A DNA stretch of 64,000 nt from positions 5,280-69,279 of the forward strand of contig JAOTVV010000015.1 of the NCBI GenBank assembly GCA_029863245.1, written 5' to 3'. The notes beneath the pieces were generated by a model. It did no database searches. It was not told where the DNA came from and worked only from the letters and a program-made list of their open reading frames with translations. Source of the stretch: Gemmatimonadota bacterium. GTDB lineage: Bacteria > Gemmatimonadota > Gemmatimonadetes > Gemmatimonadales > GWC2-71-9. A program made the position numbers and the translations under genes. Within the stretch, counting starts at the first letter, position 1. Each line of letters opens with the position of its first letter. Of the stretch, positions 15,949 through 42,691 are shown piece after piece.

Positions 15949-18855
15949 TCATTTGGTGCGAACGATCCAGATCTGCGGCCTGGTGGCGGTGCCGAGCGGT
16001 GCGTCGACCAGGTCCCGGACTCTGATGGCCAGCGCCGGACGGCTGGCTGCCGCGGCGAGCAAGGTGTACACGGTGCTGCCGGGCCGGACCTGCTCGGTGA
16101 TCGCGAAGTTTCCAAAGGTCTGCTGCGCCGGCGCCAGTGGCGCCGCCGCGCTGCGTGAGCTCAGGACGTCGTGCACGTTCCAGCTCGCCATTTGGATGCT
16201 GGTATCGGATGCCACGCCGGGGCGACCATCCACGTAGTTCTGTGCCGCCCATCGCGCAAAGACCGAATCGAATTGCACCCCCAGAAGGGCCTCGACGTTC
16301 TGCACACCTGACAAGTCGCTCTTCGCAATCCAGTCCTTAGTGAGCGCCGTCTCACCACCCGGATAGCTCTGGCCGAACCGATCGGCCACGTACCGCTGGA
16401 ACGCCCACGAGGCTCCGTAGAACCAGAAGGGTTCGCACGGCGTGCCGCTGTTGAGCGCCTGCGTGCCGAAGAGCGTGCACTCGTCCGGCGCGTTCGCGTT
16501 CCTCACCCCGCCGCCGGCCCACCCGAAGTACCAGGCCAGGCGGTCGAAGATGAACCGGTACCACGACGCCCCTGGACCCGAGAGCGCCACCGATGCCCCG
16601 TAATCCATGCCCGGCGTGTTGCCAAGAATACTGTGCCCGACCACCTCTTCGGCCAGGGTCGCCTGCCCCTCGGCCTCCCACGTCGACAACGATCTCGACC
16701 GTCCGAGGACAACGATGCGGCGGCTCTGTTGGATGTTGTGAGTGAACTCGTGCGCGATCAGTGACGGCATCTGGAACAGCACGTTGCTCTTTTGCCGCGC
16801 TCCCATGCCGGCGACGTTGCCGGGATCGGGGACATGGCCGTAGAACAGCTCTCCCTCATCGGAGGATGCGCAGCTCGCCGCGGAAAACAGGTCGCCCGCG
16901 AACACGAACCCGGCGATCTGCCCGCTCAGGAGCTTGTTCACCTCGATCGTGAGCACGACGAACACGCGTTGGTTGATGTCGAGGTCGCTGGGCGTGCCGA
17001 AATAGGTGGTGTCGGCGGCGTAGATGTGGAGGTCGAATGTGTCACTATGCGCCTGGATCTCCGCGTCCGTCAACGAGTCGGCGGCCGGGTTGTTGAGGTC
17101 GGTCACGAAGATCCCGGCCGACCCTACCGTCTTCACCACCGCGTCGATGCCGATCGAGTCACACGCGCCCGTAGTGTTCCCCGTCCCGCCCGTGTTGTCG
17201 ATGTTCGGCACGTGGAGATGGAGCGTGTCGCCGACGTTCGGGACCGCCATGGTGGCCGCCGGGCTCCGGGCCGCCGCCGGACGCAGGGCGGCGTTCGTCG
17301 CCGGGTCCAGGAACTGCCGCTCGAATGCGCGGATCCGCTGTTCCGCCCGATCGTGGGCCACGCGGCGCTCGATCTCCTGGAGATTCACTGCCGAGGGCGC
17401 GGAGCGAACACTCCGAGGAGAGAACGCGGGAACCATCGCGACTGGCGCGGGGGCCGCCGCTCCCTGCACGGCGGTCATCGTGTACGAGAGGGTGAGCGTG
17501 GGGGATTCGGCGGCCGCTCCAACGCCGACCAGATACTCGTTTCCTCCCGTCGAGGACGGAGCGAACTGGAGACAGAAGCTCGTCGGGTCCTGGACCAGCA
17601 TCATCTCGCCGGGCGCGAGAGCCAGCAGGCTGGCAGGACGCACCGGGTGGCTCACCGTGTTGCTGTTGGTCCCGCCGACCGTGACCTGCACATTGACGGT
17701 ACGGACCGGCTGACATGCAAAGGTCGGGACTGTGATCCCAAGGGTCGTCGCCGTGGCCGACGTCACGGTCGCCTGCAGCCCACCGATCGTCACCGTGTTG
17801 TTGGCCGGCGTCGTGCTAAAGCCCGTGCCGGTGAGGGTGGCCGAAGCCCCTTCCACCATCGTGTCGGGGCTGACGGCCGCGACGGACAGGTTGCTACCCG
17901 TTGCGGTGAAGGTCACGGGATCGCCCTTGAGGCCGGCGGCGCTGGCCTCGACGGACTGCGAACCGAGCGTGGCCCCGATGGTCCAGGTCGTGGACGCCTC
18001 ACCGTTCGCGCCGGTCTGAACGTTGGTCGGGTTCACCGACCCGCTGCCGGCGGCAGGCGTGAACACGACGTCCGCGCCCGCAACGCCGTTGGCGTACTGG
18101 TCGATGACCTTCACCACGAGGGGGGCGGGAAGCGCCGCACCCACGGTGCCAGTCTGCGCATTGCCGGACGCGGCGAAGACCGAGTCTGCGGCGGCCGCGG
18201 TGGCGGTGGCGCCAAACTGCGCGGTAGTGGTGCCACCGGCCGGCGTCGCGGTGACGGTATGCGCGCCCGCCGCCGTTCCAAAGGTCCACTGGGCGGCCAC
18301 GCGTCCCCCTGCACCGGTGGCCGCGCTCCCCGGCGAGACACTCCCGCCAGAGGCCGACGCGGCGAAGGCCACGCTCACCCCTGCGATCGCGTTCCCCCGG
18401 CTGTCATTGACGATGAGCACCAGGGAATCGGCAAGGACGGTTACCACCGGCGCGGTCTGCGCATCGCCGGACAGCTTCTGTAGCTGGGCCGCCCGCTGGG
18501 CCACCGTGACGCTCGCCTGCCCGTTCGCCACTCCCGACGACGCCGTGACCGTCGCCGACCCGTTGGCGACGGCGGTAACGACGCCACTCGCGCTCACCGA
18601 GGCGACGGCCGGGCTCGACGAGGTCCAGGACACCGATGCGCCCGACATGATGTTGCCGTTCTGATCCCGGACGGTGGCCGATAAGGCATCGGTCGCGCCG
18701 AGCGCATCCAGGGCCACCGTGGCCTTGTTGAGCGTGAGCGTTGTCGGCACCGGATTGGGCCCGGTCCCGCCGCTCTCGGAACAGGCCAGCTGCACAGTCA
18801 CGCTCAGCACGAGGCCGAGCACGGCGAGACGAAGCAGGGGGAATGAACGCGTCAC
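15949..18855 (-). CDS. Secreted/lipid-anchored zinc metalloprotease with N-terminal tandem Ig-like (Big_2/IPT) repeats
   Basis: Lipoprotein signal MTRSFPLLRLAVLGLVLSVTVQLACS. Several ~80-90-aa Ig-like repeats follow (ATVTASSGVANGQASVTV, HTVTATPAGG, SVEASAAGLKGDPVTFTA, NTVTIGGLQATV). The C-terminal catalytic region carries an HExxH site (SLIAHEFTHNIQ) followed by STWEAEGQATLAEE, a gluzincin-like third ligand resembling M30/hyicolysin. Confidence 0.75.
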   Translation of the reverse strand: MTRSFPLLRLAVLGLVLSVTVQLACSESGGTGPNPVPTTLTLNKATVALDALGATDALSATVRDQNGNIMSGASVSWTSSSPAVASVSASGVVTAVANGSATVTASSGVANGQASVTVAQRAAQLQKLSGDAQTAPVVTVLADSLVLIVNDSRGNAIAGVSVAFAASASGGSVSPGSAATGAGGRVAAQWTFGTAAGAHTVTATPAGGTTTAQFGATATAAAADSVFAASGNAQTGTVGAALPAPLVVKVIDQYANGVAGADVVFTPAAGSGSVNPTNVQTGANGEASTTWTIGATLGSQSVEASAAGLKGDPVTFTATGSNLSVAAVSPDTMVEGASATLTGTGFSTTPANNTVTIGGLQATVTSATATTLGITVPTFACQPVRTVNVQVTVGGTNSNTVSHPVRPASLLALAPGEMMLVQDPTSFCLQFAPSSTGGNEYLVGVGAAAESPTLTLSYTMTAVQGAAAPAPVAMVPAFSPRSVRSAPSAVNLQEIERRVAHDRAEQRIRAFERQFLDPATNAALRPAAARSPAATMAVPNVGDTLHLHVPNIDNTGGTGNTTGACDSIGIDAVVKTVGSAGIFVTDLNNPAADSLTDAEIQAHSDTFDLHIYAADTTYFGTPSDLDINQRVFVVLTIEVNKLLSGQIAGFVFAGDLFSAASCASSDEGELFYGHVPDPGNVAGMGARQKSNVLFQMPSLIAHEFTHNIQQSRRIVVLGRSRSLSTWEAEGQATLAEEVVGHSILGNTPGMDYGASVALSGPGASWYRFIFDRLAWYFGWAGGGVRNANAPDECTLFGTQALNSGTPCEPFWFYGASWAFQRYVADRFGQSYPGGETALTKDWIAKSDLSGVQNVEALLGVQFDSVFARWAAQNYVDGRPGVASDTSIQMASWNVHDVLSSRSAAAPLAPAQQTFGNFAITEQVRPGSTVYTLLAAAASRPALAIRVRDLVDAPLGTATRPQIWIVRTK

Positions 18856-19514: not shown

Positions 19515-19916
19515 CTACTTCACCGGGAACGAGAGGCTCGACCCAAACAGCCCCATGAGTTCATAGGTCGGCAACGCGAGATCCATGAGCGTCACCGAGT
19601 ACGCGTTCTGAGCATTACGGTCCGAGACCAGGACGCGGAGCAGCGGGCCCGCCGAAAACGTGCCGGTCACAACCCCTCGCAGTTCGCGCTCGGTCGTCTG
19701 GAGGGTGAACACGCTGCAGCCCGTGCACGCCTCCGTCACGGACTCGATCGAATACGGCTCGATCGCATTGACCCGGAACATCGCCGCCCCGAGGCTCGAG
19801 TGCGGGGTGGTGAGCTCGGCAACGATCTCGCCGGACTTGGGACCCGAGTCGCAGGAGCCGACGAGCACCGCGGCAACGAGGACCGCAGCCAGCCGACGCG
19901 TTCCACGGCGGTTCAT
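19515..19916 (-). CDS. Small lipoprotein of unknown function (coupled to upstream M6 protease)
   Basis: ATG 19916 overlaps the M6 protease stop (ATGA at 19913-19916). Signal plus lipobox MNRRGTRRLAAVLVAAVLVGSCDS. 133 aa. The longer 255-aa track ORF prefix is an out-of-frame overlap. Confidence 0.6.
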   Translation of the reverse strand: MNRRGTRRLAAVLVAAVLVGSCDSGPKSGEIVAELTTPHSSLGAAMFRVNAIEPYSIESVTEACTGCSVFTLQTTERELRGVVTGTFSAGPLLRVLVSDRNAQNAYSVTLMDLALPTYELMGLFGSSLSFPVK

Positions 19917-22423
19917 GGCCGTTCTCCTCCTTCGCGCCCCAACTGGACCGCGAGCTCCGGCGCCACGCTCTGTCCTGTCGCATTCACCCAGGCCAGAAAA
20001 TCTCCCACATCCGCCCGTCCATTGCGGTTCCCGAGCAGGTCGAGGTACGCAATATCGTCCGCGGTAAGGGGACGGGCGGACGTCACGAGGTGCGAGAGCA
20101 CGTCCGCCATCGCAAGTGCCGGGGCACTCACCTCGAGCTGAACGTCGGCGGCTTGCGTTTGGGAGCCCGACACCACCGTCAAGGTGAGGGGGAACGTGCC
20201 GGTTTCCGCCGGCCGGCCCTGCAGCTCGCCGCTCTGGCCGAGAACCAGGCCCTGCGGGAGAGTCCCGGCAGTCACGCTCCACACGTGGGCTCCCGTGCCG
20301 CCCACTGCCTGGAGCTGGACGCGGTACACGGCGCCCATCACGGCGGCCGGAAGACTCGACGACGAAACGGTGAGCGGCGCCGCAAACGTCGCGGTCAGCT
20401 GAAACGGACGGGTCACGTCGAGTTGCAGCGTGTCCGCCATTGCACTGGTGTCGCCCGACCAGCCCTCGAAGACGTGCGCCGGACCGGTCGGCTCAGCAAT
20501 CAGCGTGACGGCCGTCCCGGCGATCACGAACTCGCCCGCGGCGAGGTCCAATGTCGGCTGTGCCGTCACCACCCCGCTCCCGGTACCGCCAGCGGCCACG
20601 GCCACGCGATGCTCAGCCCGAACCGTGGCGATGATGGAGTCACCCGCCGCGGACGCCGTGAACGTGTGCGAGCGATCCTGCCCGTTCGACCACGACAACC
20701 AGGCGTAGCGGGTCTGTCCGGTCCCCGCCAGCTGGACCGAATCCATTTCGAGCGCATGCTGGGACCCGGCGGGGAGGCACGCCTTGAAGCTCGCGTATGA
20801 CGTCCCGTCCACGCGGAGCACGGCGGCCGTGTCGCTCGCCTGCACCACCGATGGCCGATGGAGGCATAGGCGCGCTACCATTCCCAGCGACGCGGGCACC
20901 TGGTAGATCGAATCCACCATGATGTAGGTCGGTGTCCCGTCGTTGCGGGCGCTCGGCGGATTCGTGTTCAGCCCGAACACGCGCCTCAGCGTGCTGCCGG
21001 GGAACGGATCGCCGGAGTCTCCGCGATGGCTCGAGCCGTTCAACATGTCGTTGCGGCCGTCGGCCTGCTCCAGCGCGAGCGCATGCGGCAGCGAGGCGTT
21101 CACGTAGTTGCCTCGGGTGCGCATCAGCACGGAATCGACGTGCCAAATGAGCAGGCCCGGCGCGTGGAGGGCCGAGTCGGAGCCGAGTTGCTGGCGGTTC
21201 TCGAGCAGGAAATACTCGTTCGAGCTCGTGATCGGCACCACGTACACCGTGTCGGAGGCCTGCACCGGGGTGATTTGGAATGTCGTGTCGGCCGCGATCA
21301 GAACCTCAGACACCCAACCGAGCTGGGCGCGGGACCACGCCTCCATGTGGGCCGGTCGGTGGGCCCTGTTCCAGTTCCCCGACCCCATGAGCCCCCAGTG
21401 CCCGATGCCGGCAGAGTTCCCGAGCACGTCGTAGAGGTCGGGCAGGCCAAGGATGTGCCCCGTCTCGTGGGCGACTACGCCCATGGCCTGCGGCTCGCCA
21501 CCCGTGCATCCTCCGTCGCCCCCCTGGCCCCCTTGGATGATGTAGTCACGGATCTTGACCATCCCGCCACCGACCGCATTGGATGGATCGCCGGTGGAGA
21601 CATCGGGGCTCACCACATACTTGTGGGCCCAGATGTTGTTCTCCGAAGTCGGGGTGATGTTCTTGCAGGCTCCATCGACCTCCGGGTGCATGAGCACGAT
21701 GGCATCGACAAAGCCGTCATCGTCCCCGGAGTTGGGGACGCCATCGGGGCCATCGTTGTCGAAGGTCCCGAAGTCAACGCTGTCGTCATGTGCCGCGACG
21801 AGTTCCTGCACCATCGACCGCAATTGGGATTGCGCGCACAGCCCGTTGCAGCCTGCCTCGTAGTACGTATCGGGTTGCGAGACCCGGGTCCAATCGAACA
21901 CGCTGCCGGTCACGAGCAGCCTGTCGTTCGACAGCTCGCGGTAATAGGTGTGGATCGAGTACGGCGGGGCCGGACTGGTGCCGTACAGCCGGTCGGCGAG
22001 GGCCTGCCGCGGCACCACGCTTTGGAGCACGGCGGAGTCGGTGTTGGCGTACATCACGAGAAACACCGGCACCCGCAGCTCGCCGCCGTAGACTCCGCTG
22101 GGGTCGAAGCCGGCGAGCGGCGCCAAGCTCACCCCCGATGCTGCAGCCTGCGCCCGGAACGCGTTCCGCCGCCTGGCCACCTCGCGGCCCCGCCGGATCC
22201 AGCCGTTGTCCTCTGAGAACTGAAACGCCGTGGGATCCCGGCGCAGCATGTCGTAGTACGCAGCGGGTGGACGGGCCCCACCCAGCACGCGGCCAAGCTC
22301 CTCGACATCGGTCTGGGCGGCCGCCGGACCCGCCACGAGCAGGGCCACGACGAAGCCCGCCGCGGTCGGGCCGAGCCGCACGAGCCGGCGGCGGCCGAGC
22401 CATGGTCGATGAGCCGTTTGCAT
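19913..22423 (-). CDS. Secreted M6-family (immune inhibitor A-like) zinc metalloprotease with C-terminal Ig-like/beta-repeat modules
   Basis: Signal peptide (RRRLVRLGPTAAGFVVALLVAGPAAAQ). M6 N-terminal signature HTYYRELSNDRLLVTGSVFDWTRV. Zinc site VVAHETGHILGLPDLYD. C-terminal repeat modules (HVFEGWSGD; LPAAVMGAVYRVQLQAVGGTGAHVWSV..LPQGL) and a terminal dockerin-like Ca-loop. Confidence 0.85.
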   Translation of the reverse strand: MQTAHRPWLGRRRLVRLGPTAAGFVVALLVAGPAAAQTDVEELGRVLGGARPPAAYYDMLRRDPTAFQFSEDNGWIRRGREVARRRNAFRAQAAASGVSLAPLAGFDPSGVYGGELRVPVFLVMYANTDSAVLQSVVPRQALADRLYGTSPAPPYSIHTYYRELSNDRLLVTGSVFDWTRVSQPDTYYEAGCNGLCAQSQLRSMVQELVAAHDDSVDFGTFDNDGPDGVPNSGDDDGFVDAIVLMHPEVDGACKNITPTSENNIWAHKYVVSPDVSTGDPSNAVGGGMVKIRDYIIQGGQGGDGGCTGGEPQAMGVVAHETGHILGLPDLYDVLGNSAGIGHWGLMGSGNWNRAHRPAHMEAWSRAQLGWVSEVLIAADTTFQITPVQASDTVYVVPITSSNEYFLLENRQQLGSDSALHAPGLLIWHVDSVLMRTRGNYVNASLPHALALEQADGRNDMLNGSSHRGDSGDPFPGSTLRRVFGLNTNPPSARNDGTPTYIMVDSIYQVPASLGMVARLCLHRPSVVQASDTAAVLRVDGTSYASFKACLPAGSQHALEMDSVQLAGTGQTRYAWLSWSNGQDRSHTFTASAAGDSIIATVRAEHRVAVAAGGTGSGVVTAQPTLDLAAGEFVIAGTAVTLIAEPTGPAHVFEGWSGDTSAMADTLQLDVTRPFQLTATFAAPLTVSSSSLPAAVMGAVYRVQLQAVGGTGAHVWSVTAGTLPQGLVLGQSGELQGRPAETGTFPLTLTVVSGSQTQAADVQLEVSAPALAMADVLSHLVTSARPLTADDIAYLDLLGNRNGRADVGDFLAWVNATGQSVAPELAVQLGREGGERP

Positions 22424-22498
22424 CGGATTCAGATCATACTCCTAGTCCGCCGTTAGTACCCACGTTCGCCCGCCTGGTGCCCCGAAGGCTACCATAGC

Positions 22499-23197
22499 TC
22501 AAAATCGGATGGTGTGGACAGCGAGGGCGACCCCCGTGCCGACGACCGCACCCACCACGACGTCCGACGGAAAGTGCTTGGCCGACGCGACCCGGAGTAC
22601 GCTAATCCCTACTGCCGCAGCGACCGCCGCCAGCTTCGGTGCGAGCCCCCGTTCGGGGTTGTTGAGCCAATAGCTGGTGGCCGTGGCGAAGGCGATCGCC
22701 GCGTGACCCGACGGCATCGAGCGCTGATTGATCACCTGGTTGGCCACGTCCGGCGCGACCTCTGTGTAGAGCACGGGCCGGTTCCGCCCGATCAGCGACT
22801 TGCTCAACCCGACGACGCCCATCGTCCACGCCATGGTCTCCAACTCGGTCAGCACCCGCCGCTGGCCCCGCGGGCCGAACGCGGTGTGGATCAGAGTCCC
22901 GCTGGCCAGACCCAGTATGAGCAGGTCGCTCCCGGTGGCATAGGCACGGACCGGGGGCCGGATGATCCACCGATCGAAACCCGGCACCGACCCGGGGTCG
23001 CATGGCGCACACGGAGGGGGCCCCTGGTAGTGATCCAGCAGCAGCGAAACCCCGAACACCGCCACGGCACCGCCGAACGACAAGGCTTGGTCGGTGCTTA
23101 CCCACGGGTCCCGGCCAACTTCTTGTGACGCAGCCGATTGCGCGCCACCCGCTACGAGAGTGGCTAACAGCAATAAGGAGGCGCACTTGTGCGACAC
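22499..23197 (-). CDS. PAP2-superfamily lipid phosphatase (membrane)
   Basis: All three PAP2 motifs are present: KSLIGRNRP, MPSGHAA and SAKHFPSDVVVG. Start uncertain: GTG 23197 (VSHKCASLLLLATLVAGG, signal-like) is preferred over ATG 23332, which would run into the divergent spt gene. Confidence 0.8.
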   Translation of the reverse strand: MSHKCASLLLLATLVAGGAQSAASQEVGRDPWVSTDQALSFGGAVAVFGVSLLLDHYQGPPPCAPCDPGSVPGFDRWIIRPPVRAYATGSDLLILGLASGTLIHTAFGPRGQRRVLTELETMAWTMGVVGLSKSLIGRNRPVLYTEVAPDVANQVINQRSMPSGHAAIAFATATSYWLNNPERGLAPKLAAVAAAVGISVLRVASAKHFPSDVVVGAVVGTGVALAVHTIRF

Positions 23198-23285
23198 TGT
23201 GGCGATCGGTACTATGCTACGATTCAGAACGCCCCCTCTGGGCACCAGGGTTCCCCTACCGTCTCTTTCACCGAGTCGAGGGCTC

Positions 23286-24488
23286 GTGGGTACGCAGACA
23301 TTACAACAGGTCGCGCTGTTCGAGAAGTGCAAGAACTTTACCCGGGCGCGCGAGTTCCAGGCGGCGGGCCTCTATCCCTACTTCAAGCCGATCTCGAGGG
23401 CGGAGGACACGGTCGTCGTCATCGAGGGCAAGGAGCGGGTGATGATGGGCTCCAACAACTACCTGGGACTCACGCAGCATCCCAAGGTGTTGGAGGCCGC
23501 CCGGAACGCCCTGGAGCGGTATGGCTCCGGGTGCACCGGAAGCCGTTTCCTCAACGGGACGCTCGACCTGCACGAGCTCCTGGAGATCCGTCTCGCCGAG
23601 TTCTTCGGCAAGGAAGCGGCGCTCGTGTTCTCGACCGGGTATCAGGCCAACCTCGGCCTCATTTCGGGTTTGGTCGGCCGGGGTGAGGTCGTGCTGATCG
23701 ACAAGCTCGACCATGCCTCGATCGTCGACGGCGCCCAGATGTCGTTCGGCAACACGCAACGGTTCGGGCACGGCGACCTGAAGCAGCTCGAGTTCTTGCT
23801 CCAGCGGTATCAGGATCGGGGCACCCTGGTCATCGTCGACGGCGTGTACTCGATGGAAGGGGACATCGCCGACGTGCCGTCGCTGCTCAAGTTGACGCAG
23901 CGGTACGGGGCGGCCCTGGCCGTGGACGACGCCCACTCGGTGGGTGTCCTGGGTCCGAAGGGCGACGGGACGGCGGCCCACTTCGGGCTCGCCCAGGAGG
24001 TCGAGCTGATCGTCGGGACGTTCTCGAAGTCGCTGGCGTCGATCGGTGGCTTCGTTGCCGGCTCCGAGTCGGTCATCCACTTCCTCAAGCACCATAGCCG
24101 TCCGTTGATCTTCACGGCGGCCCTGCCCCCGTCCAACACCGCGGGCGTCTTGGCGGCTCTGGAGATCCTGATTGAGGAGCCGGAGCGCCGCACCCGCCTC
24201 TGGGAGAACACTCGGCGGTTCCAGGACGGGTGTCGGAGCCTCGGCTTCGACATCGGGCACACGCAGACCCCCATCGTTCCCGTGTTGATTGGTTCGCTCG
24301 AAAGCACGTTCATGTTCTGGCGTCAGCTGTACGACGCGGGGGTCTTCACCAACCCGGTCGTGCCACCGGCCGTGCCACCCGACGAATGCCGCCTCCGGAC
24401 GAGTCTCATGGCGACGCACACGACCGACCAGATCGACACCGCCCTGGAGATCTTCGGACGGTTGGGAAAGCAATCGGGGGTCATTTGA
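23286..24488 (+). CDS. spt: Alpha-oxoamine synthase, serine palmitoyltransferase-like (PLP-dependent)
   Basis: GSNNYLGL, GSGCTGSRFLNGT, STGYQANLG, DDAHS, the PLP-lysine motif GTFSKSLASIGGFV, RLWEN, and a C-terminal ...GKQSGVI. It is collinear with Sphingomonas Spt as I remember it. Start uncertain: GTG 23286 is preferred; ATG 23214 is the alternative. The symbol is tentative. Confidence 0.8.
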   Translation: MGTQTLQQVALFEKCKNFTRAREFQAAGLYPYFKPISRAEDTVVVIEGKERVMMGSNNYLGLTQHPKVLEAARNALERYGSGCTGSRFLNGTLDLHELLEIRLAEFFGKEAALVFSTGYQANLGLISGLVGRGEVVLIDKLDHASIVDGAQMSFGNTQRFGHGDLKQLEFLLQRYQDRGTLVIVDGVYSMEGDIADVPSLLKLTQRYGAALAVDDAHSVGVLGPKGDGTAAHFGLAQEVELIVGTFSKSLASIGGFVAGSESVIHFLKHHSRPLIFTAALPPSNTAGVLAALEILIEEPERRTRLWENTRRFQDGCRSLGFDIGHTQTPIVPVLIGSLESTFMFWRQLYDAGVFTNPVVPPAVPPDECRLRTSLMATHTTDQIDTALEIFGRLGKQSGVI

Positions 24489-25603
24489 GCGATCCGGCGG
24501 TCGTGCGGCGCGTCGAGCGCGCCGCCGACCTCGACCGATTCATCGCCTTTCCATATCGCCTCCACCGGGGCGACCCGAAATGGGTCGCCCCGTTGCGAAT
24601 AGACGTCCGCACGCTGCTCTCCCGCACGAAGAACCCGTTCTTCCAACGAGCCGAGGCGGACTACTTCCTCGCCGAGCGCGGTGGCAAAGTCGTGGGGCGG
24701 ATCGCCGCGATCCACAACCGCGCCCACAACGAGTTCCACGAAGACCAAGTCGGCTTCTTCGGCTTCTTCGAATGCGGCGACGACCAGGCAGTGGCAAACA
24801 CGCTGCTCGACCATGCGGCGGCCTGGCTCAAAGAGCGCGGGCTCGACACGATGCGCGGCCCGGCGTCGTTTTCGACCAATGACGAGTGCGGCCTGCTCGT
24901 CGAGGGCTTCGAGCACCCTCCCACCGTCCTCAATCCGCACAACCCCCCGTACTACCAGCAACTCGTCGAGGGGGCGGGGTTCCGGAAATCTAAAGATCTG
25001 ATGCTGTATCAGAGCACGGGCACAGAGCTTCCGGAGCGGCTCGGGCGGGTGGCGGCGAGGGTCGCCCACCGCATGCAGATCACGCTGCGATGCCTCGACA
25101 TGAAGCGGTTCTACGAGGAAGTGGAACGCATCAAGCCGCTGTACAACCAGGCCTGGGAGAAGAACTGGGGCTTCGTGCCCATGACCGATGCCGAGATCGA
25201 CCATCTGGCCAAGCAGTTGAAACCGATCGTGGATCCCAATCTCGTCGTGTTCGCCGAGCGCAACGGGGAGCCGATCGGCTTTGCCGCCGCGATTCCGGAC
25301 ATGAACGTCGCGCTCAAGGCCAATCCGTCCGGTCGGCTCTTTCCCGGCATCCTCAAGGTGCTTTGGCGCGCACGTCGCATTTCACGGCTCCGCATCCTGC
25401 TCCTCGGGGTGATCAAGGAGTTTCGCGGCGCCGGGGCCGCCGAGTTGATGTACCATCACATCTGGACGACCGGCGTGGGGCGTGGGTACAACTGGGGTGA
25501 AGGCGGCTGGGTTCTCGAGGACAACACGCCTATGAACAAAGGACTCGAGTTCATGGGCTTCGAAGTGTACAAGCGACTCAGGATGTACGACCGCCCGTTG
25601 TGA
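24485..25603 (+). CDS. Two-lobed GNAT-fold acyl-CoA N-acyltransferase (candidate N-acyltransferase of the lipid operon)
   Basis: About 372 aa. Conserved-looking blocks are DPKWVAPL, KNPFF, VGRIAAIHN..H, VGFFGFFE, MRGPASFSTNDECGLLVEGF, PYYQQL, and the C-terminal GNAT signature FRGAGAAELMY..WVLEDNTPMNKGLEFMGF. The TTG start at 24485 overlaps the spt stop (TTGA); GTG 24503 is an alternative. Confidence 0.7.
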   Translation: MSDPAVVRRVERAADLDRFIAFPYRLHRGDPKWVAPLRIDVRTLLSRTKNPFFQRAEADYFLAERGGKVVGRIAAIHNRAHNEFHEDQVGFFGFFECGDDQAVANTLLDHAAAWLKERGLDTMRGPASFSTNDECGLLVEGFEHPPTVLNPHNPPYYQQLVEGAGFRKSKDLMLYQSTGTELPERLGRVAARVAHRMQITLRCLDMKRFYEEVERIKPLYNQAWEKNWGFVPMTDAEIDHLAKQLKPIVDPNLVVFAERNGEPIGFAAAIPDMNVALKANPSGRLFPGILKVLWRARRISRLRILLLGVIKEFRGAGAAELMYHHIWTTGVGRGYNWGEGGWVLEDNTPMNKGLEFMGFEVYKRLRMYDRPL

Positions 25604-26604
25604 GGGTCTTCGTCACCGGCGCCACGGGATTCGTCGGTTCCCACCTCGTCCACACCCTGCTCAACCGGGGCCATCACGTCTCCTGCCTGGTCCGGAGCCC
25701 GGAGAAGGCTGCCCGGACGTTCCGCCACGCCTCGCCCACCATCGTTCACGGGGACCTGGATCATCCGACCGCGCTCCACACCGGCGCGAAGGAAGCCGAC
25801 CTCGTGTTCCACGTTGCCGGCCTGACGGCCGCACGAGACCTCGACGAATTCCTGACGGTGAACAATGGTGGCACGGAACGCGTCCTGGCAGCCGCTGCAG
25901 AGGTCGCACCGCATCTCCAGCGGTTCGTGTACGTGTCGTCACTGGCCGCCGTGGGTCCGACACAGCGCGGTTCGCCGGCAACCGAAGCCAGCGGCCCGCA
26001 CCCTGTGAGCAACTACGGCATGAGCAAGCTCGCCGGCGAGGCAGCAACGCGCGTGAGCTCTCTCCCGTGGACCATCGTGCGACCACCCGCGGTTTACGGC
26101 CCCCGAGACGTCGAACTCCTGAGGGTGTTCAAGCTCGCTCGGTTCGGCTTCGCGCCCGTGTTCGGGGACGGGACGCAGGAACTCTCCTTCGTGCATGTCA
26201 CCGACCTCGTGGACGCCCTGATCTTGGCAGCGACCGACACCGATCCCGGGAAGGTGTACTTCGCCTGTCATGGCGAGATCGTGACGGTGCGGGACTTCGT
26301 AGAGCAGGTGCACGAGGCGGTGCGCCATGTCACCTCCCCCCGCCACCGTCAGCCTCGCCCACCCCGTCGGATACGGATTCCGGTCTGGATCGCCAAGAGC
26401 GTGCTGACCGCCAACGGGACCCTCAGCAGAATGCTCGGGCGACGAACGCTGCTCTCGGCCGACAAGAGCCGGGAGCTTCTGGCCGACGCCTGGACCTGTG
26501 CGGCGGCTGCCTTGGAACGGGATACTGGTTGGACGGCACGCATCCCTCTTCACGAGGGACTGGCGACCACGGCCCAGTGGTACCGCGAGAACGGGTGGCT
26601 GTGA
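25600..26604 (+). CDS. NAD(P)-dependent epimerase/dehydratase-family (extended SDR) oxidoreductase
   Basis: Rossmann motif VFVTGATGFVGSHLV and catalytic YGMSKLAGE. The GTG start overlaps the upstream stop (GTGA at 25600-25603). Confidence 0.85.
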   Translation: MRVFVTGATGFVGSHLVHTLLNRGHHVSCLVRSPEKAARTFRHASPTIVHGDLDHPTALHTGAKEADLVFHVAGLTAARDLDEFLTVNNGGTERVLAAAAEVAPHLQRFVYVSSLAAVGPTQRGSPATEASGPHPVSNYGMSKLAGEAATRVSSLPWTIVRPPAVYGPRDVELLRVFKLARFGFAPVFGDGTQELSFVHVTDLVDALILAATDTDPGKVYFACHGEIVTVRDFVEQVHEAVRHVTSPRHRQPRPPRRIRIPVWIAKSVLTANGTLSRMLGRRTLLSADKSRELLADAWTCAAAALERDTGWTARIPLHEGLATTAQWYRENGWL

Positions 26605-27467
26605 GACCGGTCGACTGGCTCCTCGGCGCGTATGTCGCCTTCGTCACCGGACTCATTGTCCTCCGGGGTGGGGTGGGCGCCGCCACCCCATGGATCCTGT
26701 CTGGACATCTCCTCTTCTTCGTACTGCTCGTCCTGTTTCAACGGCGACCCCCGCGGGGGCGACTGGGCGGCACGCTCCACGATCTCTACCCGCTCATCGT
26801 GCTGATGCCATTCTATACGGAGCTCGGCTTCCTCGGCATGGAGCAGGGTGCCGAACGCATCTTCGCCAATGATGCCGTCGTGCAGGGATGGGAACAGTGG
26901 CTGTTCGGAAGTCAGATATCGTACCAGTGGATTCGGCATGCTCCATCGGTGTTCTGGTCGGGATTCCTGCATGTCTCGTATCTCAGCTATTACCCGCTCG
27001 TCGTGGTGGGTCCTATCCTGCTGACGATTCGCGGCCAACGGCCCGAGGCGCAGCGAGTCTTGTTCACCACGATGATGGCGTACGTCACGTGTTACCTCGT
27101 CTTTCTGTTGTTTCCCGTCGCGGGGCCGAACTACGCCTTCCAGCACCCAACGGGCCCGGTGCGCGACGTGTGGAGCGCCGAGGCGGTGTATGCCTTTCTC
27201 GGAGGCGGGTCCTCGATCGGCACGGCGTTTCCCTCGTCCCACGTCGCTGCGACGCTGGCGGCGGTGTTTGCCCTCTGGGGGGAGTGGAAGTGGCTCGCCG
27301 CCGCGCTGACGGTACCCGCGGCGTTACTGGTGGTCGCGACCGTCTACTGTCAGATGCATTACGGCATCGACGCGCTCGCGGGCATCGCGGTCGCGGTTGG
27401 CGCCGCGATCGCAGGACATCGCATTCGTCGCCATTCGCGGGACTCTGCCACCAGTCTTGCCTTTTGA
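26601..27467 (+). CDS. Polytopic PAP2_3/Aur1-like membrane protein (candidate phospho-headgroup transferase)
   Basis: The GTG start overlaps the SDR stop (GTGA at 26601-26604). Six or more hydrophobic segments. Motifs AFPSSHVAATLAA and QMHYGIDALAGI match the PSxH / HYxxD motifs of the inositol-phosphoceramide-synthase / sphingomyelin-synthase branch of PAP2. Confidence 0.7.
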   Translation: MRPVDWLLGAYVAFVTGLIVLRGGVGAATPWILSGHLLFFVLLVLFQRRPPRGRLGGTLHDLYPLIVLMPFYTELGFLGMEQGAERIFANDAVVQGWEQWLFGSQISYQWIRHAPSVFWSGFLHVSYLSYYPLVVVGPILLTIRGQRPEAQRVLFTTMMAYVTCYLVFLLFPVAGPNYAFQHPTGPVRDVWSAEAVYAFLGGGSSIGTAFPSSHVAATLAAVFALWGEWKWLAAALTVPAALLVVATVYCQMHYGIDALAGIAVAVGAAIAGHRIRRHSRDSATSLAF

Positions 27468-27494
27468 GTGCAATCGGAGAACTTGTCAGGCACC

Positions 27495-27890
27495 ATGCGA
27501 TGGATGTCCCTCGTCACCGCAGCTGTGTTTCTCCAAGCGTGCGTACCCGGCAGCCCGGTGTACTTCGGCCCGCCCGTGGTCACGCTGGAGGGTGACGTGG
27601 CCGTGTTCGAAACCGGACAGGCTCTACCGGAAACCGAAGTATGCGTGTTCGGGGCGGACACGCTGTGCCTGCCGGCCGACGCCAAGGGGCATTACTGGGC
27701 GCAGTTCCGCGAGCAGACGCTCCTCGAGAACGGCTCGGTGACGGTGCGGTTCCGCGCGCCGGGGCTCCCCGCGGCCGTCGCCGAGCTTCACGATCTGGTA
27801 CTCGGGCAGAAAACCACCTTAGACTGCGCCATCAGCGACCGGGTGACGCTTGCCGGCGGTCCACTGGCGTGCCGCCCCATCCAGCGTTGA
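27495..27890 (+). CDS. Small lipoprotein, unknown function
   Basis: MRWMSLVTAAVFLQACVPGS signal/lipobox. 131 aa with several additional Cys. It starts 27 nt after the PAP2-like gene in the same orientation. Confidence 0.5.
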   Translation: MRWMSLVTAAVFLQACVPGSPVYFGPPVVTLEGDVAVFETGQALPETEVCVFGADTLCLPADAKGHYWAQFREQTLLENGSVTVRFRAPGLPAAVAELHDLVLGQKTTLDCAISDRVTLAGGPLACRPIQR

Positions 27891-27895
27891 GCCGT

Positions 27896-28708
27896 ATGGC
27901 CACTCCTCCACCCTGCACGGGCCTCGGTCCCCAATGCCGCGAACTCGCCGTCACGCTCCATATCGCCGACCTCGAAGAGGACAACCCGACGTTTCACGAT
28001 GCGGCCGCCACGTGGCTGCTGGGGCATACGGAGCGCATCCACATGGGTCGCCCCTACGTGCTCGGTACCGATATGCTGGTCGACGCCGTCATTCGTATTC
28101 CCTGCAAGTACTTCTCGCAGCAAGAACCCGGCGTCAACGGCGGCAGGACCGCCGGCGCGACTGGCCGCTCGGCCCAATGCACAGCTCACGGCTTCACCGC
28201 TGCCCCACCTCGCCTACCCGCTCCGCACCCCAACGGGACCCAAGAACGTCAGCTGCGGAACGGCAAGTACGTCGTGGTGTTCAAGGGGCGGCAGCGAGCC
28301 TTACCCCTGCCCCTCAAGCGAGCCGCGCAACGCGCGCTGCCTGTGATGCAGGGAGACAACCCCTGCATCGGGGCCGCGTGCCGAACGGCCGACAATCGGC
28401 GGGGGGCAGCCTGCTGCCGGGACCTGACGCTGGACGTGGTGGTGCACGAGTCCGAGACCGCACTCGAGCTGCTGCTCCGGGCCCGGAAGCCGCCCTACTT
28501 GTGCAAGGTCAAGCGAACGGGACCCGATCTCGTCGAGTGCGAGGTGATCTCGGCGTGCGGCTATCTCGCGGAGGACGGCATCAGCTGCGCCCTGCACGAC
28601 CGGACCCTCCCCAATGGTCGCCCGGCCAAACCGCCCATCTGCTCGGAGTGGCCGGACCTGGAACCGGACGACACCGGTCACCCGGGGTGCGTGTTGTTGA
28701 AGGATTGA
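27896..28708 (+). CDS. Cys-rich putative Zn/Fe-chelating protein (YkgJ/UPF0153, CxxCxxCC-family-like) with N-terminal extension
   Basis: ATG 27896 lies 5 nt after the upstream stop. The C-terminal half has GAACCRDL...VVVHESE and CGYLAEDGISCALHDRTLPNGRPAKPPICSEWP, resembling the YkgJ family pattern (C.FL..dg.C.iy..RP..C..fP). High GC3 supports this frame over the Arg-rich ORF 27850-28731. Confidence 0.5.
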   Translation: MATPPPCTGLGPQCRELAVTLHIADLEEDNPTFHDAAATWLLGHTERIHMGRPYVLGTDMLVDAVIRIPCKYFSQQEPGVNGGRTAGATGRSAQCTAHGFTAAPPRLPAPHPNGTQERQLRNGKYVVVFKGRQRALPLPLKRAAQRALPVMQGDNPCIGAACRTADNRRGAACCRDLTLDVVVHESETALELLLRARKPPYLCKVKRTGPDLVECEVISACGYLAEDGISCALHDRTLPNGRPAKPPICSEWPDLEPDDTGHPGCVLLKD

Positions 28709-35222: not shown

Positions 35223-36479
35223 CTAGTGGTGACCCGTCAGCTCAGCCTTTGCCAGGAGCCGCGGGCTCACCATCGGGAACGTTCGAGCAAACAGCCCGTA
35301 CGCCAGCAGGAACAGCCCCAGGAACCCGAGAGAGATGGCTATTTCAGGCGCGCCGAACATGGGCCCGGCCTCGGTGAGCGATGGCTGGACCAGCAGATAG
35401 CGTTCCAGCCACACACCGACGAAGCTGATGGCGAGAAACGTGGTGAAGGTCACGCGGTTGATCTTCGCCTTGACCCAGATGAGGCCCCAGAACGGGATGA
35501 GGAAGATCATGAGCCCGACCAGAATCGCAATCGGTCGCCAGTCGCCCCACAGCCGGAGAAACACGAACGACGTCTCTTCCCGCAGGTTGCCGTACCAAAT
35601 CACGAGTAGCTGGCTGTACATGAGGTACGCCCAAAAGATTGAGAACGCGAATACCAGCTTGCCGAGATCGTGAAGCTGCTCACGCCCAATCACGGCGCCC
35701 ATATCGAGCTTCCAGCGCCAGAACACACTCATCAAGCCGAGCATCGTGAGCCCGGTGAGGAAGGCACCCATGAAGAAGAACGCGCCGAACAGGTTGCTCA
35801 TCCAGTACGGGGCGAGCGACATGATCAGATCGAACCCGAGCAGGGAGAAGAGGTACGCGTAGAGCAGGCACAAGAGGGGCGCGAGCCAGTTGATACGGCG
35901 CTCCACGGCTTGGAGCTGTTCGGGACTCCCCACGTAGTCGCCGGCGATGCGGTCGTACAGCGCGCGCTTCCAGCCCGTCACGTGATCGCGGAGCTCGGCC
36001 ACGTCCGGCTTGAGGTCATGGTAGACGAATGCCACGCTCGTCACCATCAGGGCGAGCAATGCCGCCAGATCGCGCCAGAACACCCAGGGGACCGTGAGCC
36101 AGTTCCCTCGCAGGGGCGTGGGATGCTCGATCCAGGGGAACAGGTGGTGCTTCCCGAGGAACAGCACCAGGAAGCACACCACGGAAACCGGCAGGAACAA
36201 GGCTGCCGCTTCCGCAAAGCGGATAATCGGGCCGGCCCACACGCCTTTCGTGATCTTCTGTGTCGCCGCGAAGACGATGGCGCCCTGGGCGACACCCGTG
36301 AAGAACAGGAAGTTGATGAGAAACAGGCGCCAAGCGCGACCGGGATCGTCACCCATCGCGAGTGCCACGAACGTGCCTAGTCCGACGATAGCCAGCACGA
36401 TGCCCGCCACGAATAGCGACGCCGTCGGAGCGTTGGCGCCGCGCCGGTGGATCTCGTGGTGGACCGTTGCCGGGCTCAC
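35223..36479 (-). CDS. actF: Alternative complex III subunit ActF (NrfD/PsrC-like membrane subunit)
   Basis: Polytopic NrfD-like protein, paralogous in architecture to ActC. The GTG start at 36479 overlaps the ActE stop (GTGA). Its position as the last gene of the actABCDEF order supports the call. Confidence 0.8.
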   Translation of the reverse strand: MSPATVHHEIHRRGANAPTASLFVAGIVLAIVGLGTFVALAMGDDPGRAWRLFLINFLFFTGVAQGAIVFAATQKITKGVWAGPIIRFAEAAALFLPVSVVCFLVLFLGKHHLFPWIEHPTPLRGNWLTVPWVFWRDLAALLALMVTSVAFVYHDLKPDVAELRDHVTGWKRALYDRIAGDYVGSPEQLQAVERRINWLAPLLCLLYAYLFSLLGFDLIMSLAPYWMSNLFGAFFFMGAFLTGLTMLGLMSVFWRWKLDMGAVIGREQLHDLGKLVFAFSIFWAYLMYSQLLVIWYGNLREETSFVFLRLWGDWRPIAILVGLMIFLIPFWGLIWVKAKINRVTFTTFLAISFVGVWLERYLLVQPSLTEAGPMFGAPEIAISLGFLGLFLLAYGLFARTFPMVSPRLLAKAELTGHH

Positions 36480-37030
36480 CGTGCCGTTCCCCCCAACGTG
36501 CGCATGTAGTTCACGATGTGCCACTTGTCTGCCGGCGTGATCCGACCGCCGTATTCGGGCATCAAGGCACCGAAGCCGTTGGTGATCACACCGTAGACCC
36601 AACCGTCGGAGGACCGAACCACGCGATCGTCGGTGAGGTTCCGGACCGCATTTGCCAGCGACGGTGCCACGAGCCCATCACCAAGGCCCTCGGCGCCGTG
36701 ACAGACCGAACAGTAGATCTCGTAGCGATCGCGCCCGCGCTCCAGCGACTCGGCGGTGACCTGCACCGGATTGACCAGTCTATCGAGTTGGGCCTGGTGC
36801 TGCGGCACGGCCGCCGGCACGACTTCTCGCCCAGTGATGGGCACCGCGCCCTCGACCGGCTGAAGGGGCATCTTGTACGGTTGGATCGCGATTCCTCGAT
36901 GCATCACGGAAAACCACGGCACGGCCGCCACGAGGTCATCGGGACTCGGAAAGCGATGCCATTGCTCCCGGGTACAGCCGGCCACCACGGCCACCAGCAC
37001 CAACACCGCTGCCGCGCGCCTAGGACTCAA
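36476..37030 (-). CDS. actE: Alternative complex III subunit ActE (monoheme cytochrome c, lipoprotein)
   Basis: Single CxxCH (CSVCHG) with a distal Met context (FGALMPEYG). Lipobox VLVAVVAGC. The probable TTG start at 37030 overlaps the ActD end by 11 nt; the exact start is uncertain. Confidence 0.75.
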   Translation of the reverse strand: MSPRRAAAVLVLVAVVAGCTREQWHRFPSPDDLVAAVPWFSVMHRGIAIQPYKMPLQPVEGAVPITGREVVPAAVPQHQAQLDRLVNPVQVTAESLERGRDRYEIYCSVCHGAEGLGDGLVAPSLANAVRNLTDDRVVRSSDGWVYGVITNGFGALMPEYGGRITPADKWHIVNYMRTLGGTAR

Positions 37031-37526
37031 CCCGCACCTCCTCGGCGCCCGCGGCCCGCAAGAGCGCCTCGACCTCGGCCCGCCGCTCGGTCGGACATCG
37101 CACGAAGATCCCAATGTGGTCGTCGGTGAACCGCCCCTCGTATGCCCCCATCTGCCGGTTCCGCCAACTGTGGAAGATCAAGCCTAGAATGGTGGCGCCC
37201 GCCCCGAACAGGATCGTCAACTCGAACGCGATGACGACGTAGGGAATCACCGACCCGATCGGCTTGCCGCCGACCACGAGCGGCCAATCGAACGACATCC
37301 AGAGGGTGAGCGCGAATCCCGACGCACACCCGAGCAGCCCACCCAGGAGGGTCCAGAGACGCACGGGACTCACCCGGTGCCCCACGGCCTGCGCGATCTC
37401 GACGTTGGGCACCGGCGTGTACACCGTGAAATCACGGATACCCTCCGCCTTCAGCGTCCGGATCGCCCCAGAGGCTGCGTCGACGAAGCGATACGATGCG
37501 AGGACCCCACCAGTCATGGTGCTCAT
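37020..37526 (-). CDS. actD: Alternative complex III subunit ActD (small membrane subunit)
   Basis: Only the last 168 codons of the 548-aa track ORF are used. ATG 37526 overlaps the ActC stop (ATGA). The product has a soluble N-domain, two hydrophobic helices (LWTLLGGLLGCASGFALTLWM; VIPYVVIAFELTILFGAGATILGLIF) and a C-terminal tail, at the expected ActD size and position. Confidence 0.7.
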   Translation of the reverse strand: MSTMTGGVLASYRFVDAASGAIRTLKAEGIRDFTVYTPVPNVEIAQAVGHRVSPVRLWTLLGGLLGCASGFALTLWMSFDWPLVVGGKPIGSVIPYVVIAFELTILFGAGATILGLIFHSWRNRQMGAYEGRFTDDHIGIFVRCPTERRAEVEALLRAAGAEEVRVES

Positions 37527-38872: not shown

Positions 38873-38878
38873 CTCGCC

Positions 38879-41800: not shown

Positions 41801-41899
41801 GTCGCTCGAGCAGCCGGATAGCGCGGCTGCCCCACCGCCGGTCACGCCAAGGACCGTGAGGAACTTTCTCCGGTTCATGCCATTCGAGTTCTCAGCCAT
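38879..41899 (-). CDS. actB: Alternative complex III subunit ActB (fused molybdopterin-oxidoreductase-like + 4Fe-4S ferredoxin domains)
   Basis: 1006 aa. Twin-arginine signal followed by a lipobox-like Cys (MNRRKFLTVLGVTGGGAAALSGCSS). The N-terminal MopB-like domain carries the cluster motif CRECPAGCGLHV. The C-terminal domain has four Cys clusters (CTGCSACVTACYAENNI, CQQCGSAPCETVCP, CVGTRYCSNNCPYKV, CTFCVQRI). Confidence 0.9.
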   Translation of the reverse strand: MAENSNGMNRRKFLTVLGVTGGGAAALSGCSSDSVEKLIPYLVPPENQVPGVATWYASTCRECPAGCGLHVRVREGRAVKVEGNPDHPVNAGRLCARGQASLQGLYNPDRVRQPLSRTADGKFEPIAWEDAIAQVAERLGGSPSDGVRFLTGHEAGSFDRLVDEWLAAFGSRGRVAFEPLGYEALRHANRTVFGIDGLARHDFAAADYVLSFGADFLDTWLSPVEHARGFGARHGYRDGHMGRYVHVEPRLSMTAMSADEWVAPRPGSEGLLALSVAHVIVRDGLASTPADVHRVRPLLDRHVPETVAAETGVPADTVARLAREFTAGPSVALAGGMGIQHAAAHVTAAAVNLLNYVAGNVGRTVRFEGTPTGRPAPYSRLVELTSDMKGGAVRALFMHGANPVHGTPPGLGFRDAMQAVPFKVSFARFMDETAQACDLVLPDHDPLEQWNDFETRPGVHALQQPVMQPVFDTRATGDVLLQVTARVGGPASARLTVTSFKDYLQRSWAALQARVGDRRPFATFWTEALQRGGVWREPSTQRVTLAASAGSLEGSSTWRLPEGRLALIAYPSSALYDGRGANRPWLQELPDPVTKTTWTTWVEIHPETGAELGIAEGDVVEIASDMATIRAQAYLYPGLRRDTVAVPMGQGHTAFGRYAEGRGANVLHLLDAEPTAFGGVATYTGVTLRATGEHAPLPKTEGKPRQMGRGIAQMVTLEELARGEGHGEHGAHAAPVPERIEEILDHWQEGQDEATKYGAYEGEHPRWGMAVDLSRCTGCSACVTACYAENNIATVGPESVRRGREMSWLRIERYFEGGENGEPFEARVLPMLCQQCGSAPCETVCPVFAAYHTPDGLNGQIYNRCVGTRYCSNNCPYKVRYFNWFDYQEPADPTFAWPEPLHWLLNPDVTVRSKGVMEKCTFCVQRIRDKQNQAKLEDRDRLADGEVLTACQQTCPSDAIVFGDLNDPNSRVSALARETRGYHALGELNTRPAVTYLKKVRNLVEG

Positions 41900-41943
41900 C
41901 CGTCCTCAGCTCCGCACCCCCATGATGCCGTCGACCACCGGAC

Positions 41944-42552: not shown

Positions 42553-42691
42553 GACCCAGCTGTGCGAGGCATGAACACGCTCCGTCCGTGTGTGATGCCG
42601 TGCCAACCGACCGATGTGACTCGTCCTGAGAAGCCGCACCGGACATCATGAACGAGGCGTGTGCGACCGAGGGTCCGGCGCGGCCGCAAGT

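Follow-up and report, generated by a model that had tools for sequence, protein, structure and literature searches.

We analysed a 64,000-nucleotide stretch of DNA from an uncultured Gemmatimonadota bacterium of soil type (order Gemmatimonadales; assembly GCA_029863245.1, contig JAOTVV010000015.1, positions 5,280 to 69,279 of the forward strand; hereafter the window), which has a G+C content of ~66% and whose proteins have closest relatives that carry the names Gemmatimonadales or Gemmatimonadota. Within it, four consecutive genes on the plus strand encode, in order, an alpha-oxoamine synthase (AOS), a tandem-GNAT acyltransferase, an extended short-chain dehydrogenase/reductase (SDR) and a polytopic membrane protein of the PAP2_3 family. 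Taken together, homology, predicted fold and gene context make it rather likely that this locus is a sphingolipid biosynthesis operon that includes a step of head-group transfer. Bacterial ceramide synthesis by Spt, bCerS and CerR was worked out in 2021-2022; to our knowledge, the attachment of a phospho-head group to bacterial ceramide is known only for Caulobacter, by a kinase route, and, for inositol, for Bacteroides. The four genes, referred to below as genes 1 to 4, are as follows.

23286..24488, plus strand: AOS of the serine palmitoyltransferase (SPT, Spt) type, 400 aa (PF00155, scores against SPT models, alignment and tree).
24485..25603, plus strand: tandem-GNAT N-acyltransferase of the YghO-like family, bCerS candidate, 372 aa (predicted fold, cluster homology and linkage).
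25600..26604, plus strand: extended SDR, CerR candidate keto-reductase, 334 aa (PF01370, cluster homology and linkage).
26601..27467 (alternative start 26595), plus strand: PAP2_3 (Aur1-like) membrane protein with eight helices, candidate ceramide phospho-head-group transferase (PF14378, fold, triad and linkage).

An initial annotation of the same DNA had described four plus-strand genes joined by three 4-nt overlaps, all of which can be read in the sequence. The stop codon of the AOS gene (TGA, 24486-24488) and the TTG start of the GNAT gene at 24485 share the tetranucleotide TTGA (24485-24488), and GTGA forms both the GNAT/SDR junction (25600-25603) and the SDR/PAP2_3 junction (26601-26604). 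Public gene calls place the start of gene 4 at an in-frame GTG at 26595 (P0121, 290 aa, 100% identical), which would lengthen its overlap with the SDR gene to 10 nt instead of 4 nt; the 4-nt SDR/PAP2_3 overlap is also present in the related loci L092 and L093. Such start/stop overlaps suggest that all four steps are translationally coupled.

On sequence grounds, gene 1 is an SPT-type AOS of the Bacteroidota type that stands apart from BioF, Kbl and CapB. It matches PF00155 with 186 bits and, amongst NCBIfam models, scores highest with SerpalmtaseCFB (526 bits), ahead of BioF (398) and Kbl (371). Amongst proteins of solved structure, the SPT of Sphingobacterium multivorum scored highest (438 bits), with lower scores for Kbl and BioF enzymes (306/260/226), the Sphingomonas SPTs (~300), cysteate acyltransferases of the CapB type (244 and 231), ALAS (194) and CqsA (145). 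Alignment with the crystallised S. multivorum enzyme runs from end to end, with 51% identity over 389 columns, and the motifs that carry the histidine, the aspartate and the lysine that binds pyridoxal phosphate (PLP) (DHAS, DDAHS and GTFSKS) are identical in the two proteins. Furthermore, in a neighbour-joining tree with E. coli BioF and Kbl as the only outgroups, gene 1, both characterised SPTs and every cluster-linked AOS formed one group that left out BioF and Kbl in 100/100 replicates. A BioF or Kbl identity was rejected on both sets of scores and on the tree, in agreement with the motif-based view of the initial annotation that gene 1 is closer to SPT.

Since single-sequence searches with the GNAT and PAP2_3 proteins came back empty, we turned to profiles and predicted folds for these two families. 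Gene 2 gave no PDB match and no NCBIfam family when searched as a single sequence, and only a weak match to PF00583 in Pfam. Its AlphaFold2 model (pLDDT 95.3) has tandem GNATs as its best fold matches, as expected from the two-lobed GNAT architecture that had been proposed for it. The family to which it belongs is very large, with 8,963 representatives (50%-identity clusters, E<=1e-3), and includes E. coli YghO, with which gene 2 shares 35% identity. Identity is 40% with the GNAT of a Streptomyces gene cluster, and 37% over the full length (E 5e-73) with the GNAT of the SPT cluster of Sphingomonas parapaucimobilis. Gene 3 belongs to the epimerase/dehydratase family of SDRs, as had likewise been recognised (PF01370, 127 bits; motifs GATGFVG and YGMSK), and reaches the cut-off of no curated NCBIfam family (HpnA, 120 against 368). 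It aligns end-to-end, including a C-terminal WYRxNG motif, with the NAD(P)H-binding protein of the Sphingomonas SPT cluster (34% identity, E 8e-41), and also matches the SDRs of the Streptomyces cluster (40%, E 1e-58) and the E. coli yghO cluster (30%, E 1e-32). A sugar-nucleotide epimerase was considered for gene 3 and rejected; this assignment draws on generic SDR similarity only, the specific full-length matches being the cluster SDRs.

The S. parapaucimobilis cluster comprises genes for an NAD(P)H-binding protein, an acyl carrier protein (ACP), an AOS, lptF, lptG, a desaturase and the GNAT, and its AOS is in essence the SPT that was crystallised from S. paucimobilis (907 bits to 2JG2). When the Sphingomonas, E. 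coli and Streptomyces cluster proteins were used in tblastn searches of the window, they matched the corresponding window genes and nothing else. In Streptomyces the genes of the AOS-GNAT-SDR trio overlap one another, and E. coli has the trio at the yghO locus. Genes 2 and 3 thus have full-length homologues in clusters built around a validated SPT, and by homology they are members of the known Spt/bCerS/CerR trio, which bears out their earlier comparison with bCerS and CerR.

The work of Stankeviciute et al. in 2022 and of Olea-Ozuna et al. in 2021 reportedly assigned these three functions in Caulobacter crescentus to CCNA_01220 (Spt), CCNA_01212 (bCerS) and CCNA_01222 (CerR). The Caulobacter locus contains cerR, acp, spt and lptF/G paralogues followed by the acyltransferase gene, so that bcerS (CC_1154/CCNA_01212) adjoins the LptF/G paralogues, with spt, acp and cerR at CCNA_01220-01222 (PMC11324152, PMC9393093). 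From its place beside lptF/G paralogues, we infer that the Sphingomonas GNAT is the orthologue of CC_1154. The window shares with the Caulobacter and Sphingomonas systems the same clustered enzyme types (AOS, YghO-like tandem GNAT and extended SDR), and its Spt, GNAT and SDR share 42%, 37% and 34% identity with their Sphingomonas counterparts. Unlike these systems, the window lacks an ACP, an acyl-ACP synthetase and an LptF/G/C paralogue, all of its operon genes overlap, and its Spt is of the Bacteroidota rather than the alphaproteobacterial type. The lack of ACP and acyl-ACP synthetase genes, which the initial annotation had pointed out, held when we searched all 64 kb (tblastn with Sphingomonas and E. 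coli cluster proteins, Pfam on ~30 main open reading frames (ORFs)), which returned no ACP, acyl-AMP ligase or LptF/G paralogue; it is to be regarded as normal, since gene 1 most resembles the Bacteroidota-type SPT that uses acyl-CoA.

Three further sets of records bear on this enzyme family. In an E. coli record (PN43, NZ_MG591698.1; L087), yghO lies between 1337 and 9116 beside genes for a fatty acyl-AMP ligase, an epimerase-type SDR, an ACP, an AOS and lptG/lptF paralogues, which matches the sphingolipid loci of Caulobacter and Sphingomonas in gene content. Although labelled as a plasmid, this record contains the chromosomal glc operon. On a plasmid of Streptomyces sp. NBC_01001 (L086, 6760-11286), AOS, GNAT and SDR genes are followed by a gene for a condensation-domain protein, and all four overlap, which suggests that in actinomycetes the same core is followed by a different modification step. 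Finally, several of the Roseomonas plasmid records with a homologue of the GNAT (H4-H15, H20) annotate it as ‘dATP pyrophosphohydrolase’, a label that seems wrong for what would be an N-acyltransferase of the YghO family.

The initial annotation had named conservation of the neighbourhood in other genomes as a check on the proposed operon. We scanned for genes within 5 kb of the GNAT gene (<=5 kb), taking one genome per species and keeping the best 80 of 598 GNAT relatives; the query was a narrower GNAT alignment (A4), as the diverse alignment (A3) was too divergent to serve as a seed. Amongst these 80 genomes, the neighbours of the GNAT gene were distributed as follows.

AOS beside GNAT: 64/80 genomes, in more than 12 phyla.
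SDR beside GNAT: 57/80 genomes.
PAP2_3 beside GNAT: 35/80 genomes.
PAP2_3 cases in Gemmatimonadota: 28/31.
PAP2_3 cases in Eisenbacteria: 2/4.
PAP2_3 cases in Acidobacteriota: 2/4.
PAP2_3 cases in Latescibacterota: 1/1.
PAP2_3 cases in unclassified genomes: 2/5.

Gene order differs among lineages, as in L080, where it reads SDR-PAP2_3-GNAT-AOS, and the trio is found without PAP2_3 in loci of Ignavibacteria, Bacteroidota and Zixibacteria. In the reverse direction, a search starting from PAP2_3 homologues on long contigs arrived at this cluster again, 4-nt overlaps included (L092, L093). Chance adjacency of gene 4 was rejected on these counts together with the L092 and L093 clusters. In addition, metagenomes contain predicted fusion proteins that join AOS to GNAT (780 aa; P0252, P0319), GNAT to SDR and GNAT to GNAT (among P0252, P0319, P0337 and P0242), which are either Rosetta-stone support for functional coupling or gene-call artefacts at the overlapping start/stop sites.

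The fourth gene product had been described as a polytopic protein of the PAP2/Aur1-like branch, and the evidence points the same way. It scores 69.1 bits with PF14378 (PAP2_3; cut-off 27), which exceeds its score with PF01569, and carries the motifs FPSSH and MHYGID; all of 18 diverse cluster-linked homologues likewise match PF14378. As a single sequence it found no match in the PDB. When its AlphaFold2 model (pLDDT 91.6, pTM 0.90) was compared with the PDB using Foldseek, an E-value below 1e-3 was obtained only for the yeast inositol phosphorylceramide (IPC) synthase Aur1 (9vj4_A and 9ivc_A, E ~2e-4), with a TM-score of 0.58-0.60 over 292-293 columns, a moderate similarity. The phosphatases LpxE, PgpB and PhoN gave E>=0.02 with partial coverage, and the sphingomyelin synthase-related protein (SMSr) gave E 0.19 and a TM-score of 0.30. 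Profile alignment placed H214, H253 and D257 of gene 4 opposite H255, H294 and D298 of Aur1, and this triad is invariant in 40 close (A1) and 18 diverse (A5) homologues of gene 4. Mutation of any of the three Aur1 residues abolishes IPC synthesis (PMC13133130). The C3 context of gene 4, TVYCQMHYGID, has no arginine, as in Aur1 STMYLTHHYFVD, and neither an invariant Lys/Arg corresponding to the phosphatase C1 motif (Kx6RP) nor a C3 arginine was found in the close and 18 diverse homologues. In the literature on sphingomyelin synthases (SMS) and IPC synthases, the absence of the C1 motif and of the C3 arginine separates transferases from hydrolases. A search of the plasmid collection with the PAP2_3 protein (tblastn) returned no match.

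Comparison with known head-group enzymes places gene 4 nearest to fungal Aur1 (PDB 9vj3/9vj4, 9ivc), which is its sole significant full-length fold match and with which it shares the H-H-D triad, the FPSxH and HYxxD motifs and the lack of a C3 arginine. It differs from Aur1 in its length (288 aa against 401 aa), in having only 18% identity and a TM-score of ~0.6, in having no evident Kei1-like partner, and in a donor lipid that is probably not phosphatidylinositol (PI). Amongst bacterial proteins, a precedent is BT_1522 of Bacteroides thetaiotaomicron, an Aur1 homologue that serves as PI-dihydroceramide synthase; its knockout loses only that lipid and leaves phosphatidylethanolamine (PE)-dihydroceramide intact (PMC9246714). 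It is thus a PAP2_3/Aur1-like enzyme of a bacterium with the kind of activity, phospho-head-group addition to dihydroceramide, that is proposed here for gene 4. Its gene differs in its surroundings, an inositol-lipid cluster (MIPS, PIP synthase, PgpA-like) rather than an spt locus, and Pfam searches of the ~30 main ORFs of the window showed no inositol genes. Gene 4 also recalls the animal SMS and SMSr enzymes (PAP2_C, PF14360), which belong to the LPT-type transferase branch and donate the head group of phosphatidylcholine or PE to ceramide, but the fold match to SMSr is only weak and the PAP2_C score of gene 4 itself is under the cut-off (19.8 against 27; weak matches were found in 11/18 family members). 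In Caulobacter, the head-group chemistry is that of a ceramide kinase and CpgABC-type enzymes (PMC11324152), in contrast to the PAP2_3 transferase proposed here.

In the pathway that we propose, the PLP-dependent Spt would join L-serine and acyl-CoA to give 3-ketosphinganine, with no ACP required, as in the Sphingobacterium-type enzyme. The bCerS-type tandem-GNAT protein would N-acylate the long-chain base and the CerR-type SDR would use NAD(P)H to reduce the 3-keto group, yielding dihydroceramide; these two reactions might occur in either order, here as in Caulobacter. The homologies of these three proteins provide strong support for the view that they would together make dihydroceramide. The PAP2_3 enzyme would then act through its His-His-Asp site on the periplasmic side, taking the head group of a glycerophospholipid onto His253 and passing it to the C1 hydroxyl of ceramide with release of diacylglycerol, as Aur1 does with PI. 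We favour by a small degree this transfer of a phospho-alcohol from glycerophospholipid to ceramide through a phospho-histidine. Two loops of gene 4 (residues 46-57 and 141-150) and its C-terminus are rich in arginine, and when the positive-inside rule is applied to the model helices, the active-site loops are predicted to face the periplasm. All of the computational checks that the initial annotation had called for gave results in its favour. Of the complete phosphosphingolipid pathway that had first been put forward for this operon, then, ceramide synthesis is well supported and the phospho-head-group transfer is a matter of inference.

As to the product, ceramide phosphoethanolamine (CPE) or ceramide phosphoglycerol (CPG) is most likely, rather than IPC. 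For cultured Gemmatimonadota, lipid reports name PE, phosphatidylglycerol (PG), diphosphatidylglycerol (cardiolipin) and, as one of the major polar lipids, an unidentified ‘aminolipid’, but not PI (PMC7844134, PMC11651109). Pfam searches of the ~30 main ORFs of the 64-kb window yielded no inositol-phosphate synthase or PI synthase gene, and it is on these two grounds that a PE- or PG-derived product is preferred over IPC. The PAP2_3 protein might be a bacterial counterpart of SMS/SMSr, that is, a CPE or CPG synthase that works in the periplasmic leaflet and draws its head group from PE or PG, a suggestion that we offer tentatively.

Several points weigh against the proposed pathway. The literature searched gave no sphingolipid data for this organism or any other Gemmatimonadota, and the identity of the head group is not readable from sequence. 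Gene 1 does not reach the equivalog cut-off of the SPT-CFB model NF047600 (526.3 bits against 640) and is likewise under the cut-offs of the BetaP and AlphaP SPT models; as the NCBIfam SPT models are lineage-specific, these scores argue for a separate lineage and not for a different function. The GNAT and the SDR are tied to CCNA_01212 and CCNA_01222 through the Sphingomonas, E. coli and Streptomyces clusters and not by direct alignment, and CerR is reported to be periplasmic in Caulobacter (PMC11087976), whereas the gene 3 SDR has no signal peptide. The resemblance of gene 4 to Aur1 is modest (TM ~0.6, 18% identity, profile E 4e-5), and the diverse gene 4 profile ranks LpxE (E 2.8e-6) and the Bacillus subtilis PgpB/YodM (E 1.7e-5) top in the PDB. 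These last scores invite a reading in which genes 1-3 make ceramide and gene 4 is a hydrolase, not a transferase, acting on a lipid phosphate such as ceramide-1-phosphate, a long-chain-base phosphate, phosphatidylglycerophosphate or undecaprenyl-diphosphate. Bacterial members of the PAP2 superfamily are mostly phosphatases, and the JGI label of the gene 4 homologues is ‘membrane-associated phospholipid phosphatase’. However, the matches to phosphatases are confined to the C2-C3 core of 66 residues, whereas Aur1 aligns over 214 profile positions (59-272) and across the whole fold, and the missing C1 residues and C3 arginine speak for a transferase. In addition, neither the operon nor the window (Pfam, ~30 main ORFs) has a ceramide or long-chain-base kinase gene, and a full classical PAP2 is already encoded next door, so that we regard a hydrolase as unlikely.

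The two other alternatives concern the substrates, of gene 1 in one case and of gene 4 in the other. The operon product might be an amino-ketone lipid not derived from serine, either a capnine-type sulfonolipid, as the initial annotation had allowed for, or a 1-deoxy (alanine- or glycine-derived) N-acyl base. The sequence of an AOS gives no secure reading of its substrate choice, gene 1 falls short of the SPT equivalog cut-off as noted above, and environmental ‘Spt-like’ clades have been associated with 1-deoxy- and sulfono-ceramides (PMC11334938). This alternative is nonetheless disfavoured, and we consider it very improbable, in view of the 51% identity of gene 1 to a biochemically characterised SPT, its low scores with the solved cysteate acyltransferase-type enzymes, the lack of a cysteate synthase gene in the operon, and the co-translated Aur1-like transferase, which requires a C1 hydroxyl that only a serine-derived base provides. 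Alternatively, gene 4 could transfer head groups to an acceptor other than ceramide, in a PDCT-like glycerolipid exchange or on another envelope lipid, its linkage to the trio reflecting shared regulation of membrane lipids. Weak matches to PF24788 (AtPDCT1/2) in 4/18 members of the gene 4 family are compatible with this, as is the occurrence of the trio without PAP2_3 in Ignavibacteria, Bacteroidota and Zixibacteria, from which it follows that ceramide synthesis does not require PAP2_3. Against it stand the start/stop overlap with the SDR gene, which is kept in relatives, a linkage that outlasts rearrangement of gene order across four phyla, and the return to the same cluster when long contigs are searched from the PAP2_3 side; this too appears improbable, and transfer to ceramide is the reading that we retain for gene 4.

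The sequences that flank the operon include the following features.

22499..23197, minus strand: classical PAP2 lipid-phosphate phosphatase with a signal-peptide-like N-terminus (PF01569; C1/C2/C3 motifs).
23198..23285, no strand: divergent intergenic region of 88 bp, presumed promoter region of both units (position only).
27468..27890, plus strand: lipoprotein-like ORF, 140 aa, with a lipobox-like LQAC at the N-terminus; operon membership uncertain.
27893..28708, plus strand: Cys-rich conserved hypothetical protein, 271 aa, co-directional; operon membership uncertain.

The divergently transcribed PAP2 gene matches PF01569 with 77 bits and, in keeping with its earlier description as a classical PAP2, has the full phosphatase motif set in its translation, with C1 KSLIGRNRP, C2 PSGH and C3 RVASAKHFPSD (Kx6RP, PSGH and Rx5Hx3D). 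A homologue at the divergent position was found in only 6/31 of the Gemmatimonadota genome loci, plus L001 and L092. It would be an accessory lipid phosphatase, with an uncertain role in the system. A scan of 22300-28000 for sigma-70-type consensus sequences found no promoter site, and returned a single weak hairpin resembling a terminator (27437-27460), which falls within the 3' end of gene 4 and was treated as uninformative.

Downstream, the co-directional array probably continues past 27467, since two tightly packed ORFs (gaps of 0-2 nt) follow on the strand of gene 4 and both are called as genes at the same position in L092 (133 aa and 274 aa, respectively). The ORF at 27468-27890 begins one base past the gene 4 stop, has only a weak CarboxypepD_reg match, and has a homologue in L005. 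The ORF at 27893-28708 has no Pfam or NCBIfam match, and 14 Gemmatimonadota loci have a homologue of it downstream of PAP2_3. Neither position has a counterpart in L093.

Upstream of the operon lie genes for two large secreted proteins on the minus strand, a Big/TIG-domain protein and an M6 (immune inhibitor A-like) metallopeptidase (15949-18855 and 19913-22423). Many Gemmatimonadota loci (L001, L003, L005 and others) show the same synteny between the M6 peptidase gene and the operon, which probably reflects the lineage rather than a functional link. Farther along the window, a minus-strand cluster (35223-42639) encodes a molybdopterin oxidoreductase with 4Fe-4S domains (38879-41899), two NrfD-type membrane subunits (35223-36602 and 37523-38872) and a multihaem cytochrome c7-like protein (41944-42639), and has a likeness to respiratory modules of the alternative complex III type.

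In the literature searched we found no paper that ties Gemmatimonadota to sphingolipids or SPT, and the phylum is not named in the Black Sea sphingolipid paper, its preprint or its supplements; nor did we find a paper on an spt-bcerS-cerR-PAP2_3 operon or on a bacterial CPE or CPG synthase. To this extent the earlier suggestion of a lineage in which sphingolipids had not been described stands. The novelty is lower than it implied, because the Spt/bCerS/CerR trio is already widespread, being predicted in ~40 phyla (PMC11334938), and a bacterial Aur1 homologue, BT_1522, has already been characterised.

What sets this locus apart is a candidate head-group transferase joined to the three core genes, in an arrangement shared by almost every Gemmatimonadota genome sampled and by part of the Eisenbacteria and Acidobacteriota. 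As a compact four-gene cassette, it could reveal the enzyme of ceramide-phosphoethanolamine or ceramide-phosphoglycerol synthesis. If the proposed pathway is true, Gemmatimonadota, an abundant soil phylum, Eisenbacteria and some Acidobacteriota would be producers of phosphosphingolipids, and the ‘aminolipid’ of cultured Gemmatimonadota strains might be a sphingolipid. The cassette would then extend the range of sphingolipid producers to a major soil phylum, with a bearing on the interpretation of environmental lipid biomarkers and of envelope biology.

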